Of a stretch of 64,000 nucleotides of DNA, positions 38,088 through 55,320 are shown in pieces. The DNA lies in contig CM059432.1 in the NCBI GenBank assembly GCA_030390025.1, positions 134,726,001 through 134,790,000 on the forward strand. The letters run 5' to 3'. Under the pieces are notes generated by a model. It was given only the letters and a program-made list of their open reading frames with translations, had not been told where the DNA came from and made no database searches. Origin of the DNA: Squalus acanthias. Taxonomy: Eukaryota. Position numbers and translations under genes: made by a program. How positions within the stretch are numbered: position 1 is the stretch's first letter; each line of letters begins with the position of its first letter.

Positions 38088-40963
38088 GGCCACAGTGACC
38101 CTGCAAAATCTTCCTCACCAACATCTGGGGACTTGTGCCAAAATTGGGAGAGCTGTCCTACAGACTAGTCAAGCAACAGCCTGACATAGTCATACTCACA
38201 GAATCATACCTTTCAGCCAATGTCCCAAACACCTCCATCCCCATCCTTGGATATGTCCTGTCCCACCGGCAAGACAGACCCACCAGAGGTGGCTGCACAG
38301 TGGTATACAGTCGGGAAAGATTGGCCCTGGGAGTCCTCAACATTGACTCCGGACCCCATGAAATCTCATGGCTTCAGATCAAGCATGGGCAAGGAAACCT
38401 TCTGCTGATTACCACCTACCGCCCTCCGTCAGCTGATGAATCAGTACTCCTCCATGTTGAACACCACTTGGAAGAAGCACTGAGAGTAGCAAGGGTACAG
38501 AATGTACTCTGGGTGGGGGACGTCAATGTCCATCACCAAGAGTGGCTCGGTAGAACCACTACTGACCGAGCTGGCAGAGTCCTGAAGGACATAGCTGCCA
38601 GTTTGGGCCTGCGACAGGTGGTGAGAGAACCAACATGAGGGAAAAATCTACTTGACCTCGTCCTCACCAATCTACCTGTCGCAGATGCATCTGTCCATGA
38701 CAGCACGGGTAGCGCTGACCACCGCACAGTCATTGTGGAGACGAAGTCCCATCTTCACACTGAGAACACCCTCCATTGTGTTGTGTGGCACTACCACCAT
38801 GCTAAATGGGATAAATTCAGAACAGATCTAGCAGCTCAAAACTGGGCATCCATGTGGCGCTGTGGGCCATCAGCAGCAGCAGAATTGTATTCCACCACAA
38901 TCTGTAACCTCATGGCCTGGCATATCCCCCAATCTACCATTACCACCAAGCCAGGGGACCAACCCTGGTTCAACAAGGAGTGTAGAAGAGCATGCCAGGA
39001 GCAGCACCAGGTGTACCTAAGAATGAGGTGCCAACCTGGGGAAGCTGTAACACAGGACTACATGCATGCTAAAAAGCGGAAGCAGCATGCTATAGGCAGG
39101 GCTAAGCGATCCCACAATCAACAGATCAGATCAAAGCTCTGCAGTTCTGCCACATCCAGTCGTGAATGGTGGTGGACCATTAAACAACTAACGGGAGGAG
39201 GAGGCTCCATGAATAACCCCATCCTCAATGATGGTGGAGCCCAGCACGAGTGCAAAAGACAAGGCTGAAGCGTTTGCAACCAGCTTCAGCCAGAAGTGCC
39301 GAGTGGATGATCCATATCAGCCTACTCCCGAGGTCCCCACCATCACAGAAGCCAGTCTTCAGTCAATTCGATTAACTCCACGTGATATCAAGAAACGGCT
39401 GAGCGCACTGGATACAGCAAAGGCTATGAGCCCCGACAACATCCTGGCTGTCGTGCTGAAGACTTGTGCTCCAGAACTAGCTGCGCCTCTAGCCAAGCTG
39501 TTCCAGTACAGCTATAACACTGGCATCTATCCGACAATGTGGAAAACTGCCCAGGTATGTCCTGTCCACAAAAATGCAGGACAAATCCAATCCGGCCAAT
39601 TACCGCCCCATCGGTCTACTCTCAATCATCAGTAAAGTGATAGAAGATGTCGTCGACAGTGCTATCAAGCGGCACTTACTCACCAATAACCTGCTCACTG
39701 ATGACCACTTTGGGATCCGCCAGGACCACTCGGCTCCAGACCTCATTACAGCCTTGGTCCAAACATGGACAAAGGAGCTGAATTCCAGAGGTGAGGTGAG
39801 AGTGATTGCCCTTGACATCAAGGCAGCATTTGACCGAGTGTGACATCAAGGAGCCCTAGTAAAACTGAAGTCAATGGGAATCAGGGAAAAATACTCTCCA
39901 CTGGCTGGAGTCATACCTAGCACAAAGGAAGATGGTTGTGGTGGTCAATCATCACAGCTCCAGGACATCACTGCAGAGGTTCCTCAGGGCAGTGTCCTAG
40001 GCCTAACCATCTTCAGCTGCTTCATCAATGACCTTCCCTCCATCATAAGGTCAAAAATGGGGATGTTCGCTGATGACTGCAGTGTTCAGTGGCATTCGCA
40101 ACTCCTCAGATAATGAAGTAGTGTATGCCCGCATGCAACAAGACCTGGATGACATTCAGGCTTGGGCTGATAAGTGGCAGGTAACATTCGCGCCGCACAA
40201 GTGCCAGGCAATGACTATCTCCAACAAGCGAGAGTCTAACTACCGCCCCTTCACATTCAACGGCATTACCATCGCCGAATCCCCCATCAACATCCTGGGG
40301 GTCACCACTGAACAGAAACTTAACTGGACCAGCCACATAAATACTGTGGCAACAAGAGCAGGTCAGAGGCTGGATATTCTGCGGCGAGTGTCTCACCTCC
40401 TGACTCCCCAAAGCCTTTCCACCATCTACAAGGCACAAGTAAGGAGTGTGATGGAATACTTTCCACTTGCCTGGATGAGTGCAGCTCCAACAACACTCAA
40501 GAAGTTCGACACCATCTAGGACAAAGTAGCCTGCTTGATTGGCACCCCATCCACCACCTTAAACATTCACTCCCTCCACCACCGGCGTACCATGTCTGCA
40601 GTGCGTACCATCTACAAGATGCACTGCAGCAACTCGCCAAGGCTTCTTCGGCAGCACCTCCCAAACCCGCGACTTCTACCACCTAGAAGGACAAGGGCAG
40701 CAGGCGCATGGGAACACCACCACCTCCAAGTTCCCCTCCAAGTCACACCATCCTGACTTGGAAATATATCGGCCGTTCCTTCATCGTCGCTGGGTCAAAA
40801 TCCTGGAACTCCCTCCCTAACAGCACTGTGGGAGTACCTTCACCACACGGACTGCAGCGGTTCAAGGCGGCGGCTCACCACCACCTTCTCAAGGGCAACT
40901 AGGGATAGGTAATAAATGCTGGCCTTGCCAGCGGCGCCCAGATCCCATGAACGAATAAAAAGA
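38088..40963 (+). mobile_element. CR1-group LINE ORF2 (APE endonuclease + RT), near complete but frameshifted
   Basis: Endonuclease motifs PDIVILTES, YRPP, GDVNVHH, LDLVLT and DH. RT motifs NYRPI, ALDIKAAFDRV, PQGSVLG and FADD. A-rich 3' end. Distinct from the canonical CR1 at 55883-58138. Confidence 0.92.
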
Positions 40964-42936
40964 AACTCTCAATATATATAAATAAATGCTGCGTAAGCTT
41001 TAAAAGAAGTGTTCAGGGGTTCTACGGGAACCTCTGAGCACATTTTGAAACCTGTTTAATACAGCGCTGCAGTGTCAACCCCAAGCAGTGCGAGACTGCA
41101 TCCTCCATAGGGCTGGGGTCTCACACTTCGGTCAGGACCCAACTCCATAATTACACAGTTACTTTTTTGTAACCGCAGTATAAAAGCACTATTAGAGTTC
41201 TAAGTTATGAAGACAAACTTAGATCATTTATTTCTACCAGAGAAAAAAAAAAGTAGATGGGGGAAAGGGGCATGAAATGCATGGATAATAATGTTAAACT
41301 GTGATCCTAGAACCAGAAGACACAGGTAAAAAAAACTGATGACTCTTGATTTAGACTAGAAATTGACATATTTTTGCTCCACAGAATACTGGATCAATAT
41401 AATAGATTGCGAGTGAAATGTCAATTAATCTCTTGACAACATATATAGACAAATATCAGTTTAAGAATAAGATTAAAGAGTATAGGATTAGTTTAAGTAT
41501 GTACTCCTTTTTCCTTAAAGATCAAGTCACGAGATGGCACACCAGAAGGTTTTCTGTGTGCCGTGGCTGTTCCGCATTGAACTGAATGGAGATCATTTCG
41601 CAACTTGGGAGATTCATTTTTCGGTGTATGCAGGAGGAGGCCATGCCTCTGACAAAAACATTACTATTTAAAATAATGTATTCGTTTTCAGAACTTCTGC
41701 ATTCAACCAGACAAACATATTTTGAATAGTTTGAGAATAATCTGAATAAACTAGTTAAGTGGACTTAAAATGTCACAGCAAGTCACTTCTAGCACCTTTT
41801 AAAGATTGTATGCTTGATGAAACGCCCAACATTTAAAAAAATAATTGAATTGCAGATAATGGGGCTGCAGAATTAAACTGTTTCAGTCGGAAAACATTCT
41901 GATTACAAATTCTGCAATTACGTAGGAGTCACATCCACAGAGGTATTGCATCGACTTCTTTTGCAAATATAATTTTTTGAAAAGCAAAACTTTGGTTACA
42001 CATTTAATTATACTCATTAAATATTTCATCTATCGAAATTGGTTATTTGTACCGAGTCTATAATACCATAAGAAATGTTTATTTTCCCTCTCAACGATGT
42101 GTTTTGAAGTAATTGCTGACCTCTGGCTTTCCAACAACAAATCAAAGCCTCTAAAAATCATCAGATCATTTAAAAAGAGCATTAGTTGCTGAGGAAATGT
42201 ACAAATATTGCTGTAACTATGGCCTTGTGCACAGTGAGTCACAGATTAAGCTGTTGTGGGAGGCGGGTGCTGGTGTGTGAACATGCAGAGCGGTGCACAT
42301 CTCCACTGAAAAGATTTGGAAATAAATTTGTAAAAGTGCTCTCCAAAGACACTGATGTAAACAGGTTCCCCGCCCCCCACCCCCACCTTGGTTCCTGGAA
42401 AATAAATATTAATTTTCTTTCCCTATTGCAGGTAGATAAATAGAGAAATGTGTTCTCTCTCACCTCCTACGTACACCAAGAAATGTCTGAAACTTCAGAT
42501 AAATTTGCAGTTTTCCTTCTTTATCAAATATCTTTTCCACAGCACTTAGATGTTACCAAAAATGAAGTGTTTAAATTCAAGACATTTATTGCAAACTTCC
42601 CTCTGAATTTGAACAATTGTGCAGTGCTCCTAATACTTGATACTGTAATATGAACGGTGTTCATTTTAAATTTTGAAAAATAAACATGAAAAATGTAACT
42701 TCAAAATATAAAAATCAGGCTTCTCACGGAGGTGACAGAAAACAAGAGTATTAGGCAGTTCAGAAACAGAAAATGCTATTGTAGAAGTTTAATCATCTTC
42801 TTGTAAATTTTGAGAGTTTTTTCAATGTCTTCACAAAATTATGATGTGGCGATGCCGGTGTTGGACTGGGGTGGACAAATGTGAGAAGTCGCACAACACC
42901 AGGTTATAGTCCAACAGCTTTATTTGAAATCACAAG

Positions 42937-43130
42937 TGTCGTAAGAATGAGCCTTACGCGTGGTGAACTTAAAGTAAGCTTTAATCAACTAAAAAGGTGC
43001 TACATACAAAAGAGGTCTTACTCTATGCCTCTCCAGGATCCCACTGATCAGCCCAGTATTTATCCTGGACTAATCACAGGAAGTGATGTAATAAAGTTCG
43101 AGTCACAGGAAGCTGTATTGTGTTACCACA
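42937..43130 (-). repeat. 3' LTR
   Basis: Direct repeat of 47223-47416, preceded on the minus strand by the PPT GGGGGGGGAGAA (43131-43142). Confidence 0.96.
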
Positions 43131-43193
43131 TTCTCCCCCCCCAAAAGATTAGGAGGCCGGGATGAAGTTCGAGTCACAGGAAGCTGTATTGTG

Positions 43194-46100
43194 TTACCAC
43201 ATTCTCCCTCCATTTCGTAGCCGCTGGACGAGGGAGAGCCGCACCCGTTTGGGTTCTCGTAGCGGTAGAGGGCCCCTAGCCCGTTTACCCGCCGCGGGCC
43301 ATGGACCAGAGTCCGAGTGATCCAGCCCGCTCTGTGAGGGGTCAGGACGATCCTGACTGTGTACTGGTGCCCGAACGGGTGTCGGGCAGGGCTGTGGCAG
43401 ATCCGTTTCCGAGCGTATGGTACAGGGTGGATCGTGGCTGCGCGTGCGAGCCCCGACGGGCTCATAGTCAGTCTGCCCCAGGTCGGCACGCTGGAGTGAG
43501 GTACCAGCCGGCGTCAGATCCAGATCGTGATGAGAGGTACCTGGCGAGCCCAGAGATGTGCCTGGTACAATATCATCCCCTGGTGTCCCTCTATGTTTCG
43601 GCAGGCAGGGAGCCAGATCCCGCAATGACACGGTAGATTCCCGACCGTCAGGATACCGAATATAGGCGTAGGTAGGGTTGACGTCAGTGAGCTCAACCTC
43701 ATCTACCAGGGGGTCATTCTTAGACGCCCGAACATATCTTCGGAGTAGCACTGGTCCCGGTGCAGTCAGCCACGACGGGAGAGATATCCCATAGGATGAG
43801 CGACGCTGAAATCGGAAGAACCGTTCATGAGGCGTCGTATTTGTGGCGGTCGAAAGGAGGGACCGTGTGGAGTGTAATGCGTCTGGAAGTACTGCCTCCC
43901 ATTGCTGGTTGGGTAGGCCCCGAGATCTCAAAGCCAGACGTACCGCATTCCAGATGATAGCGTTAAAACGCTCGACTTGCCCATTCCCGACCGGATGATA
44001 AGGCGTCGTTCTGCTGGCAGCAATACCCCGTTCCGAGAGATAGGCCTTGAGTTCTCCTGACATAAAAGAAGGGCCCCGATCCGAATGAACATAGGATGCC
44101 ATGCCACAGAAAGCAAATACCTGCTCAAGGCAGCTGATAACCGTGGTCGTCAGCATATTGGGGCAGGGAAAGGCAAACGGAAAACGGGAATACTCATCGA
44201 CCATGGTCAATAGATAAGTGTTGCGAGTTGAAGAGGGCAACGGCCCCTTAAAATCGATGCTAAGCCGTTGCATTGGCTGGGTCGCATGTATGAGTATACC
44301 ACCCGAGGGGCGGAAAAACTGAGGTTTCAATTCCGCACAGACTCTGCAGTCCGAGCACATCTTCTTTACATCCCCGGTAGAGAATGGGAGATTTCGGGAC
44401 CGCACGAAGTGTAGCATGCGAGTAACGCCTGGATGACACAACCCATCATGGATGTCTACGAGCGTAGAGGGTGCCATGGCGGAGCAGAATGCTCGTGTGA
44501 GGGTATCCGGAGCCACATTCTCCTTGCCAGGTCGATAGTGGATGGTGTAACCAAAAGAGGCCAATTCCAGCCGCCAAAGCTGGATTTTATTATTTTTAAT
44601 TTTGGTCCGTTTTCGATTATCGAGCATGAAGGCGACCGATCGCTGGTCCGTGATTAAGGTAAAGTGCTGGCGAGCTAGGAGATGAGTCCACTTCCGTACT
44701 GCCTCTATGATGGCTGTAGCTTCTTTCTCGACTGGAGGATAATGTAGCTCCGCCCCTTGAAAAGTCCTGGACAAAAATGCCACCGGACGACCTTCCTGAT
44801 TCAGAGTGGCCGAGATCGCCACCTCCGAGGCATCACACTCAACAACAAAAGGAAGACTCTCATCGATGGAGTGAAGAGCCGCTTTCTCCAACTGTTTTTT
44901 CAGGAGGTTAAAGGCTGCAACAGCCGCTGTGTCTAGTGGGAATGTGCTGGCCTTCAGTAGAGGTTGGATTCGGTCCGAGAAGTTAGGAATCCATTTAGCA
45001 TAGTATGCAAACAGCCCGAGGGCCCGGCGCAAGGAGGCCGGATTCTTAGGTGGCGGGAGTTCTTGGAGTGGGCGAAGCCTTTCAGGGTCAGGTTTAATGA
45101 TGCCATTGCCCACACAATAGCCAAGGATGTTGATGGTTGGTTGTGACTCAATGGATTTAGCCGCATTTAATGTCAAATTACGGTGCTGGAGTGCATCCCA
45201 AAATCGTTGGAGATTGGCGTCATGTTCCCGCTGATTGCGACCTGCGACAGTAATATTATCCAGATAAGGAAACGTATCCTTTAAGTCTTCCTGTTTGACC
45301 AGGTCATCCATTGCTCGCTGGAAGACAGCCACTCCATTAGTGACCCCAAAGGGGAGGCGACGAAATTGATACAGCCGTCCATTGGCTTCAAAGGCCGTAT
45401 ACTGCTTGTCTGAGACCTTCAAGGGTACCTGATGATAGGCACTTTTCAGATCATATGTTGAGAACACCGTGTACTCAGCCAGTTTATTAACCATATCATC
45501 GATGCGCGGCAATGGGTATGCGTCCAAGTCCGTATATTGATTGATGGTCTGTGAATAGTCAATGCACAGCCGTTTCTTGTGAGGTTGTAGAGGGTTCTTA
45601 ACAATAACGACCTGGGCGCGCCATGGCGACGAACAAGGCTCGATGATATCCTCTGCTAAAAGCCGAGAAATCTCAGCCGCAATAAAAGACTGGTCTTCCT
45701 GACTGAAACGTCGTGACTTTGTTATAATCGGTTTGCATCGAGGAGGGATACTGGTAAACAGTGAGGGTTCATCCAGTGAAGCTGCTGACAATGCACAGAA
45801 CGGTAATCGAGGTCGTATATTAGAAATAGTGAGTTCAGGTTTGGATCCGCCGAACTCAATGGTGAGCTTCTTATGCTGCTTTTGAAAATCTAGCCCTAAG
45901 ATAAGATCACTACATAAGTCCTTGAGCACCGAAAGCCGGGTGGAGGGATACCTGTGACCATTAAGTGTTATTTCAACCATACAAAAGCCAGAAATTCTGG
46001 TATTAAGTGATGACTGAGCCATCGCAATTGCCTGGTCCGATGGGAAAACATGTAGCTTTAACTCTGCAACAATCTGTTCCCTAATGAAACTATCAGTGCT

Positions 46101-47144: not shown

Positions 47145-47222
47145 GATGGGTGATTCCCTGGATCCTTAGTTCCGAGTTCGTCCAAAAAGTTTGAGTGCGA
47201 AGTTTTTCAAAGTTGATTAAAT

Positions 47223-47416
47223 TGTCGTAAGAATGAGCCTTACGCGTGGTGAACTTAAAGTAAGCTTTAATCAACTAAAAAGGTGCTACATACAAAAGAG
47301 GTCTTACTCTATGCCTCTCCAGGATCCCACTGATCAGCCCAGTATTTATCCTGGACTAATCACAGGAAGTGATGTAATAAAGTTCGAGTCACAGGAAGCT
47401 GTATTGTGTTACCACA
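47223..47416 (-). repeat. 5' LTR
   Basis: Direct repeat of 42937-43130. TATA-like GATAAATA on the minus strand at about 47343-47350. Confidence 0.96.
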
Positions 47417-47528
47417 ACAAGCTTTCGGAGCGCTGCTCCTTCATCAGGTGAAGTGAAGAGATGCATATAGGCACAGCATATATAGTCAGAGAACACTGCC
47501 AGATGATCACTTCATGCATCTCTTCACT

Positions 47529-47565
47529 TCACCTGACGAAGGAGCAGCGCTCTGAAAGCTTGTGA
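47529..47565 (+). ncRNA. Minimal type I hammerhead ribozyme motif (Penelope-associated)
   Basis: TCAC CTGACGA A GGAGC AGC GCTCT GAAA GC TT GTGA: stem I TCAC/GTGA, stem II, and palindromic AAGCTT at stem III. Activity untested. Confidence 0.65.
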
Positions 47566-53129: not shown

Positions 53130-55320
53130 ATCACACTGAGAACACCCTCCATCGTGTTGTGTGGTACTACCACCGTGCTAAAAGGGATAGATTCAGAACA
53201 GATCTAGCAGCTCAAAACTGGGCATCCATGAGGCGCTGTGGGCCATCAGCAGAATTGTATTCCACCACAATTTGTAACCTCATGGCCCGGCATATCCCTC
53301 ACTCTACCATTACCACCAAGCCAGGGGACCAACCCTGGTTCATCAACGAGTGTAGAAGAGCATGCCAGGAGCAGCACCAGGCGTACCTAAAAATGAGGTG
53401 CCAACCTGGGGAAGCTGCAACACAGGACTACATGCATGCGAAAAAGCGGAAGCAGCATGTTATAGACAGAGCTAAGCAATCCCACAATCAACGGATCAGA
53501 TCAAAGCTCTGCAGTCCTGTCACATCCAGTCGTGAATGGTGGTGGACCATTAAACAACTAACGGGAGGAGGAGGCTCCAAGAATATCCCCATCCTCAATG
53601 ATGGTGGAGCCCAGCACGTGAGTGCAAAAGACAAGGCTGAAGCGTTTGCAACCAACTTCAGCCAGAAGTGCCGAGTGGATGATCCATATCGGCCTACTCC
53701 TGAAGTCCCCACCATCACAGAAGCCAGTCTTCAGCCAATTCGATTCACTCCACATGATATCAAGAAACGGCCGAGCGCACTGGATACAGTAAAGGCTATG
53801 GGCCCCGACAACATCCTGGCTATCGTGCTGAAGACTTGTGCTCCAGAACTAGCCGCGCCTCTAGCCAAGCTGTTCCAGTACAGCTACAACACTGGCATCT
53901 ATCCGACAACGTGGAAAACTGCCTAGGTATGGCCTGTCCACAAAAAGCAGGACAAATCCAACCCGGCCAATTACCGCCCATCAGTCTACTCTCAATCATC
54001 AGCAAAGTGATGGAAGGTGTCATCGACAGTGCTATCAAGCGGCACTTACTTACCAATAACCTACTCACTGATGCCCAGTTTGGGTTCCGCCAAGACCACT
54101 CGGCTCCCGACCTCATTACAGCCTTGGTCCAAACGTGGACAAAGGAGCTGAATTCCAGAGGTGAGGTGAGAGTGACTGCCCTTGACATCAAGGCAGCATT
54201 TGACCAAGTCTGGCATCAAGAAGCCCTAGTAAAACTGAAGTCAATGGGAATCAGGGGTAAAACGCTCCACTGGCTGGAGTCATACCTAGCACAAAGGAAG
54301 ATGGTTGTGGTGGTTGAAGGTCAATCATCACAGCCCCAGGCCATCGCTGCAGGAGTTCCTCAGGGCAGTGTCCTAGGCCCAACCATCTTCAGCTGCTTCA
54401 TCAATGACCTTCCCTCCAACATAAGGTCAGAAATGGGGATGTTCACTGATGACTGCACAGTGTTCCGCACCATTCGCAACTCCACAGATAATGAAGCAGT
54501 CCATGCCCGCATGCAACAGGACCTGGACGACGTTCAAGCTTGGGCTGATAAGTGGCAGGTAACATTCGCGCCACAGAAGTGCCAGGCAATGACAATCTCC
54601 AACAACCAAGAGTCCAACCACCTCCCCTTGACATTCAATGGCATTACCATCACCGAATCCCCCACTATCAACATCCTGGGGGTCACCATTAACCAGAAAC
54701 TTAATTGGACCAGCCACATAAATACTGTGGCAACAAGAGCAGGTCAGAGGCTGGGTATTCTGAGGCGAGTGTCTCACTTCCTGACTCCCCAAAGCCTTTC
54801 CACCATCTACAACGCACAAGTAAGGAGTGTGATGGAATACTCTCCACTTGCCTGGAGGAGTGCAGCTGCAACAACACTCAAGAAGCTCGACACCATCCAG
54901 GCCAAAGCAGCCCGCTTAATTGGCACACCATCCACCACCTTAAACATTCACTCCCTTCACCACCGGCTTACCGTGGCTGCAGTGTGTACCATCTACAAGA
55001 TGCACTGCAGCAACTCGCCAAGGCTCCTTCGGCAGCACCTCCCAAACCCACGACCTCTTCCACCTAGAAGGACAAGGGCAGCAGGCGCATGGGAACACCA
55101 CCACCTCCAAGTTCCCCTCCAAGTCACACACCATCCTGACTTAGAAGTATATCGCCGATCCTTCATCGTCACTGGTTCAAAATCCTGGAACTCCCTACCT
55201 AACAGCACTGTGGGAGTACCTTCACCACACGGACTGCAGCGGTTCAAGGCGGCGGCTCACCACCACCTTCTCAAGGGCAACTAGCGACGCCCTGATCCCA
55301 TAAACGATTAAAAAAAAAAA
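53130..55320 (+). mobile_element. 5'-truncated CR1-group LINE, same family as 38088-40963
   Basis: 272-aa and 482-aa ORF pieces with RT motifs (GVPQGSVLGP, FTDD) and a poly-A end. Confidence 0.93.

Follow-up and report, generated by a model that had tools for sequence, protein, structure and literature searches.

To date, experimental proof of self-priming in retrotransposons has come, in the portions of the literature available, from Tf1-type elements only, and the trait is regarded there as a hallmark of the Tf1/sushi group. The self-primer of Tf1 is cut by RNase H between bases 11 and 12 (PMC7175516; bioRxiv 10.1101/2022.12.06.519325); Tj1 is treated in PMC4600332 and the start sites of Tf2 in PMC5341516. 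According to the available text of PMC6317226, self-priming is also assigned to Tcn1 and, as a prediction, to the plant copia lineage TAR, the criterion being an LTR/PBS complement of at least 10 bp that starts 0–5 bp past the LTR. Skipper lacks TGG at this position, yet it has no LTR complement in the available text of PMC5006619.

The element described here has the layout of Tf1 and Tf2 (Schizosaccharomyces pombe), Tj1 and the Tf1/sushi group, i.e., there is no tRNA site and about 11 bases behind the LTR pair with the element's own LTR. The length and position of this complement also lie within the LTR/PBS range applied to Tcn1 and TAR in the available text of PMC6317226. Both of these differ from the present element, since TAR (Houba, Osr-1; plant hosts) belongs to the Ty1/copia superfamily and Tcn1 is a chromovirus. 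TAR implies that the self-priming layout has arisen outside Tf1/sushi before.

The studied stretch covers the point where the 5' LTR meets the primer site in a complete LTR retrotransposon, which lies on the minus strand of the window, i.e., the whole 64,000-nucleotide stretch of Squalus acanthias DNA that was analyzed (Table 1). LTRs with TG...CA ends, a 5-bp target-site duplication and a polypurine tract are present, as in Ty3/Gypsy LTR retrotransposons. Domain matching of the single open reading frame gave the Ty3/Gypsy order PR-RT-RNase H-IN, and the reverse transcriptase (RT) of Ty3 is the best solved relative of that of the element (E 1.9e-48). The element is a chromodomain-less member of Ty3/Gypsy. 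An extra piece of 39 bases before the polypurine tract is skipped by the contigs of three public runs and looks like the product of a template switch during reverse transcription.

Table 1. Positions of the element's features in the window, all read on the minus strand.
Feature	Position	Strand	Remark
5' LTR, 194 bp, TG...CA	47223..47416	minus	3' LTR identical over 194 columns
3' LTR	42937..43130	minus	contains a second copy of the LTR arm, without a complement behind it
Target-site duplication CTTGT, 5' side	47417..47421	minus	
Target-site duplication CTTGT, 3' side	42932..42936	minus	
TATA-like box GATAAATA	47343..47350	minus	starts at 47350; putative, from sequence
LTR arm of the duplex (predicted self-primer)	47266..47276	minus	last six bases (47271-47266) are ATTAAA
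Inner hairpin CGTAAG (47244-47239)/CTTACG (47231-47226)	47226..47244	minus	in the predicted fold; not conserved across families
Primer-binding-site position, no TGG	47211..47221	minus	complementary to 47276-47266; starts one base after the LTR
Single ORF gag-PR-RT-RNase H-IN, 1316 aa	43194..47144	minus	two zinc knuckles; no chromodomain match
RT catalytic motif YLDN	45255..45266	minus	residues 627-630; in place of YxDD
39-base extra piece	43165..43203	minus	repeats the LTR start, shortly before the polypurine tract
Polypurine tract	43131..43142	minus	adjoins the 3' LTR

The family is very young and high-copy. A search of the same genome returned 1393 candidate copies, the top 40 of which are 99–100% identical to the element, and an exact junction pattern matched 2138 times, while a control pattern gave 0 matches. 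Inspection by eye of the first 100 listed of these 2138 matches found the 11 bp intact in 97. With so many junction copies and a mostly intact complement, the element evidently spreads well without a tRNA site. Three junction copies lie about 4250 bases apart on one strand (G000:C1:566502-575082), which suggests a tandem array of elements with LTRs in common. Besides this family, the clade is represented in the genome by at least two others and by one subfamily (L124, L121/L141-L143, L107/L145, and L146), and a junction pattern matched 3883 times against 106 for its control.

At the junction itself, the final CA of the LTR is followed by one A (47222) and then by TTTAATCAACT (47221-47211), and no TGG occurs within 9 bases of the LTR end in this copy. 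The earlier note had read an A plus the 11-mer at 47221-47211; the sequence and the lack of TGG stand, but the leading A is position 47222, outside that range. The exact complement of the 11-mer that it placed within the LTR is indeed found there, as an 11-bp match. Chance complementarity between AT-rich stretches would account for such a match in a single copy most readily because the 11-mer is itself AT-rich, and the fold of the 111-nt region has a z of only −2.3, 5 of 200 shuffles folding equally well. An 11-base complement to the first bases past the LTR was reached, however, in just 2 of 5000 dinucleotide-shuffled LTRs.

Relatives of the element were collected through its protein. Among 8000 scored sequences, 731 had E values of 1e-20 or less, and the 120 listed of these are mostly 46–65% identical to the query; the named ones among the matches listed belong to crustaceans, cnidarians and a tunicate, apart from one record labeled as a bacterium. 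Gypsy elements of animals or other eukaryotes are also deposited as a Wolbachia plasmid (L238, NZ_CP087956.1) and in bacterial genome bins (L241-L244), records that likely represent host contamination; L241 is an unrelated Gypsy element with YVDN. No close relatives were found in viral contigs and phages.

Two scans of the junction were made on these relatives. In the first, the longest perfect inverted repeat was sought without anchoring it to the LTR end. The input comprised 86 loci (80 from metagenomes and 6 from the dogfish genome itself), of which 46 include the gag start and 45 of those have enough upstream sequence. The junction duplex was the longest inverted repeat in 31 of the 45, near-duplicates being counted. 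The 14 misses include L146 (a G-U pair), L074 (a longer unrelated repeat), L037 and L038 (decayed), and loci where no intact 5' LTR pairing was found. In the second scan, LTR ends were called from the repeat pair alone for 27 clade loci, and a complement of 9–15 bp beginning exactly one base past the LTR was present in 16, with the LTR arm 23–52 bases from the LTR end. The remaining 11 are accounted for by assembly overlaps, missed or overshot LTR ends, and the G-U copy. We read the non-scoring loci, though not every one of them, as decayed or rearranged copies, assembly overlaps and missed LTR ends, as is visible in L041, L142, L074, L146, and L057. Six control elements of the same genome, which we take to be Mag-like on the basis of their motifs, have TGG 1–6 bases past the LTR in all six cases, and their complement amounts to 4–7 bp only.

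The pairing changes its letters from family to family and keeps its register. Twenty representatives, chosen because the duplex is visible in them, pair with their own LTR over a mean of 12.95 bp and over 5.5 bp when sites and LTRs of different families are combined; none of 100000 permutations, uncorrected for relatedness, reached the sum of the own pairs. Positions +5 to +8 switch between two to four types of base pair, no further base pair lengthens the duplex toward the LTR end in any of the 20, and a G directly follows the LTR arm in 18. The same picture emerged from a MAFFT alignment of 14 rows that ignored structure and retained the mis-cut L016 and the out-of-register L044, both of which count against structure. 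There, 93.2% of the cells are complementary against 79.4% in shuffles, and two-sided changes number 16 against 4.4, values reached in 0 of 500 shuffles (relatedness again uncorrected). Such changes occur at 6 of the 11 duplex pairs, and slid registers pair at 20–49% only. An apparent compensatory indel between two subfamilies was left uncounted, because the T run of the site pairs either way. The shuffle controls leave relatedness in, but the families are only distantly related, and changes of this kind are repeated at several positions. The conserved, covarying pairing between LTR and primer site is real, and the compensatory changes in related families for which the earlier note had asked are thus found, in one register and with different letters. 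Such covariation, together with the fixed register, refutes chance complementarity, to which we assign a negligible probability.

The same observation bears on the possibility that a host tRNA fragment or another small host RNA is the primer and that the LTR match is secondary. Half-tRNA priming is known in some Ty1/copia lineages, according to the available text of PMC6317226, and the tRNA sample was small: 50 loci gave 17 distinct calls, some of them spurious, which span four isotypes. The best 3'-anchored match of these tRNAs to the site is 1 base; the comparison with host tRNA 3' ends proposed earlier thus yielded no matching tRNA among the four isotypes that it spanned. No Rfam family matches the element, and TGG is lacking. 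The main argument, however, is that the site varies at +5 to +16 in step with the LTR of each family: its letters follow the family's own LTR, which a fixed host tRNA or other host RNA cannot explain. We therefore consider a host primer very unlikely.

What the pairing serves is suggested by the end of the LTR arm. Its last hexamer is AATAAA or ATTAAA, the latter a common variant of the poly(A) signal, in 14 of the 20 representatives, and GATAAA, GTTAAA or GTTTAA in the others. Since the arm ends on a poly(A)-like hexamer, the duplex would mask the signal, and would do so in the 5' LTR only. It could accordingly be argued that the duplex does nothing more than conceal the poly(A) signal of the 5' LTR and thereby allow full-length RNA to form, with priming taking place elsewhere or otherwise; the hexamer lies within the arm, and only the 5' LTR is followed by a complement of that arm, as such a role would require. 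Masking alone, however, does not need the exact offset of one base that all 16 scored hits display, which is precisely the position that a primer has to occupy if it is to fix the LTR end. In addition, no TGG site remains at the primer position, and the pairing is kept in the 6 of 20 representatives whose hexamer is non-standard. Masking as the sole function is therefore improbable.

Collectively, self-priming in some form is the reading that we favor, with a probability of roughly 0.8 on the evidence of sequence comparison. As to its form, the earlier note had proposed tRNA-independent priming by fold-back, and the conserved, covarying pairing lends this proposal support; we lean toward a version in which the 5' LTR RNA folds back, is cut after the ...UAAA and yields a 5'-tailed primer. 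In the genomic RNA, the 5' LTR portion would fold onto the primer site, and cleavage immediately 3' of the duplex, between the conserved ...UAAA and the conserved G, would free a 3'-OH. Since the 3' base of the arm pairs with the base of the site nearest the LTR, synthesis from a 3'-OH at this point would run directly into the LTR end. The cutting agent would most likely be the element's own RNase H, as the Tf1 reports say for that element. The RT would then copy 44 bases back to the cut and jump to the 3' LTR. Masking of the 5' poly(A) signal would be a likely by-product of the duplex.

The primer envisaged here would differ from that of Tf1 in its 5' end. The TATA-like box of this copy starts 74 nt before the LTR arm, which agrees with the distance of about 70 nt given as a caveat in the earlier note, and the distance is 74–90 nt in four sets from this genome; two other families of the genome carry TATAAATA as a TATA-like box at the matching place, TATA-like boxes inside the LTR being found in some families only. 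The predicted start accordingly lies some 45–60 nt upstream of the arm, and the primer is therefore unlikely to be just the RNA's first 11 bases and would instead carry a 5' tail of about 45–60 nt. By comparison, L240, a fungal-type chromovirus from a viral-contig collection used as a control, has a chromodomain (protein P0242) and, at L240:1026-1174, a Tf1-like layout, with a 9-bp LTR/PBS complement and an arm 35 nt behind TATAAATA. In contrast to Tf1, then, the arm of the present element lies 74–90 nt behind the TATA-like box and ends on a poly(A)-like hexamer, and it would probably not coincide with the first bases of the RNA. The distance from TATA-like box to arm is probably the main difference from Tf1.

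These distances are open to another reading. The self-primer may come from the copy of the arm in the 3' LTR, on the same or a co-packaged RNA, or else be supplied by a short transcript of the LTR only. In that case the RNA would keep its 5' end, strong-stop DNA would extend as far as the cap, and the first strand transfer might be tethered. The arm is present in both LTRs, it follows the TATA-like box at 74–90 nt in this genome's four sets, and the poly(A)-like hexamer at its end would place it at the 3' end of the RNA as well. Against a 3' origin, the 5' copy is only 23–52 nt from the site in the scored loci and would out-compete a distant copy, the short and bounded distance of the arm is what fold-back of the 5' LTR predicts, and the literature examined offers no precedent in its available portions. 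A search for subfamily recombinants found 0 matches to the pattern expected from fold-back and 0 to that expected from a 3' primer, and it does not discriminate between them. We regard a primer from the 3' LTR or from a short transcript as the main rival to fold-back of the 5' LTR, yet rather unlikely.

A splice-acceptor-like site (a pyrimidine run followed by YAG) stands just upstream of the arm in 11 of the 20 representatives, against 4.3 expected from shuffles. It lies 28 nt before the end of the arm in five of them; examples include L022, L028, L039, L041, and L069, and the corresponding site in the window is at 47286 (minus strand). Judged from its sequence, it could have a role in an LTR intron or a spliced gag RNA. 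Of the public runs listed as containing the element, none is registered as RNA; one raw RNA run placed 0 reads on it, and contigs from seven other runs display neither an RNA end nor a splice joint within the LTR, a result that speaks in neither direction. A primer made by splicing was considered for the present family and rejected: the sole donor/acceptor-like pair in the LTR is about 33 nt apart or less, its removal shortens the duplex, and the unspliced arm already pairs fully.

Folds other than the LTR/site duplex received less support. The hairpin CGTAAG/CTTACG that the earlier note had drawn between the two arms exists and is part of the predicted fold. In stability, however, the inter-arm loop of this element does not exceed its shuffled versions (p 0.15), and none of the 20 representatives falls under 0.05 against shuffles. 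Flanking duplexes of the Tf1 'pretzel' type beat shuffles in 3 and 0 of the 20 representatives, a test that short duplexes could escape. Since neither exceeds shuffles, a conserved inner hairpin or pretzel fold was rejected. The clade hence also differs from Tf1 in that its flanking pretzel duplexes are unsupported.

Trees were built from the RT-RNase H region, with three endogenous retroviruses of the dogfish genome as outgroups and three fungal-type chromoviruses as stand-ins for Tf1. The clade forms a single group on a long stem, with a support of 1.0 in FastTree (81 rows, 392 columns) and 100 in a quick IQ-TREE tree (36 rows). It lies outside the chromoviruses and next to the Mag-like elements (SH-aLRT 91–96), as a sister to three Mag-like rows and not within them, the label having been given from motifs, without named references. 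Both groups are long-branched, and we do not trust this grouping, which may be a long-branch join. The Mag-like A/B elements, whose affiliation we again take from their motifs, resemble the present element in having a single ORF, short LTRs and a double zinc knuckle in Gag. They share only about 30% identity with it in RT-RNase H, and unlike it they carry TGG sites and YLDD.

The relation to chromoviruses was examined in the same trees. No chromodomain was detected in any of 15 clade proteins scanned, the control P0242 scoring E 2.7e-13 in the same search, so the description of the element as a non-chromodomain Gypsy holds. None of the five chromodomain places examined in the genome is a chromovirus. 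Forcing the clade together with the three fungal-type chromoviruses was rejected (AU p 0.0003 under LG+G4 and a mixture model, 18 rows), and forcing it together with all seven chromoviruses was not (p 0.075, LG+G4 only, 18 rows). An independent origin of the priming, as the earlier note had envisaged, is therefore backed as regards the fungal chromoviruses, but the test does not reject a position as sister to the chromoviruses as a whole. Among 121 aligned proteins, the RT motif is YxDN or FxDN in 91 and YxDD or FxDD in 25, with gaps in 5, and the YxDN and YxDD states are scattered over the tree of the clade; the catalytic motifs of RNase H are retained in nearly all of the 121. The clade is thus set apart from Tf1/sushi by the lack of a chromodomain, by its separation from the fungal chromoviruses, and by YxDN in 91 of 121 RTs, and on the features tested it is not a member of that group.

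[quoted passage not shown] The available text of PMC2582038 treats Saci-2 as an isolated branch of the phylogeny whose Gag carries an atypical Cys-His motif, and also characterizes the CsRN1 clade by a tRNA-Trp PBS, a CHCC motif in Gag and a 4-bp target duplication. Membership in CsRN1 was excluded, as the element has no TGG, CCHC knuckles and a 5-bp duplication. No description of self-priming in a non-chromovirus animal Gypsy clade was found in the available literature, most subscription journals, Repbase reports and supplements lying outside the search. Primer terms are absent from the accessible text of two surveys of animal Gypsy clades, PMC6238403 (main text) and PMC8556966; the portions of two others, PMC3670739 and PMC3601003, were searched for clade names only; and the available parts of PMC6934838, PMC2774666 and PMC4659654 contain nothing on self-priming in such a clade. 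A literature search for the YxDN motif in RTs found no paper. [quoted passage not shown]

A small palindromic host repeat (window 42840-42936 and 47417-47563), likely MITE-like, surrounds the element; the score of this repeat against Rfam MIR821 was 53.8 bits, far below the threshold of 249 bits. Elsewhere in the window, a fragment of a DDE_Tnp_4 (Harbinger-type) transposase occupies 5682-6620 on the minus strand, and a LINE-type reverse transcriptase lies at 53758-55284 on the plus strand, with related copies near 19080-20335 and 38874-40961. An integrase search of the same genome also returned endogenous retroviruses (L166-L178 and L184), some of them with long open and envelope-like frames.

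If the self-priming reading is true, tRNA-free priming would be a repeated invention in animal retrotransposons. The clade concerned lacks a chromodomain and has relatives in many aquatic animals, and in one large animal genome its near-identical copies number in the thousands. LTR-finding programs that require a tRNA site miss elements of this kind, and host control via tRNA fragments would probably leave them unaffected. The overlap of primer and poly(A) signal also provides a short, sharply bounded RNA in which primer formation and the suppression of 5' polyadenylation may be tested jointly.
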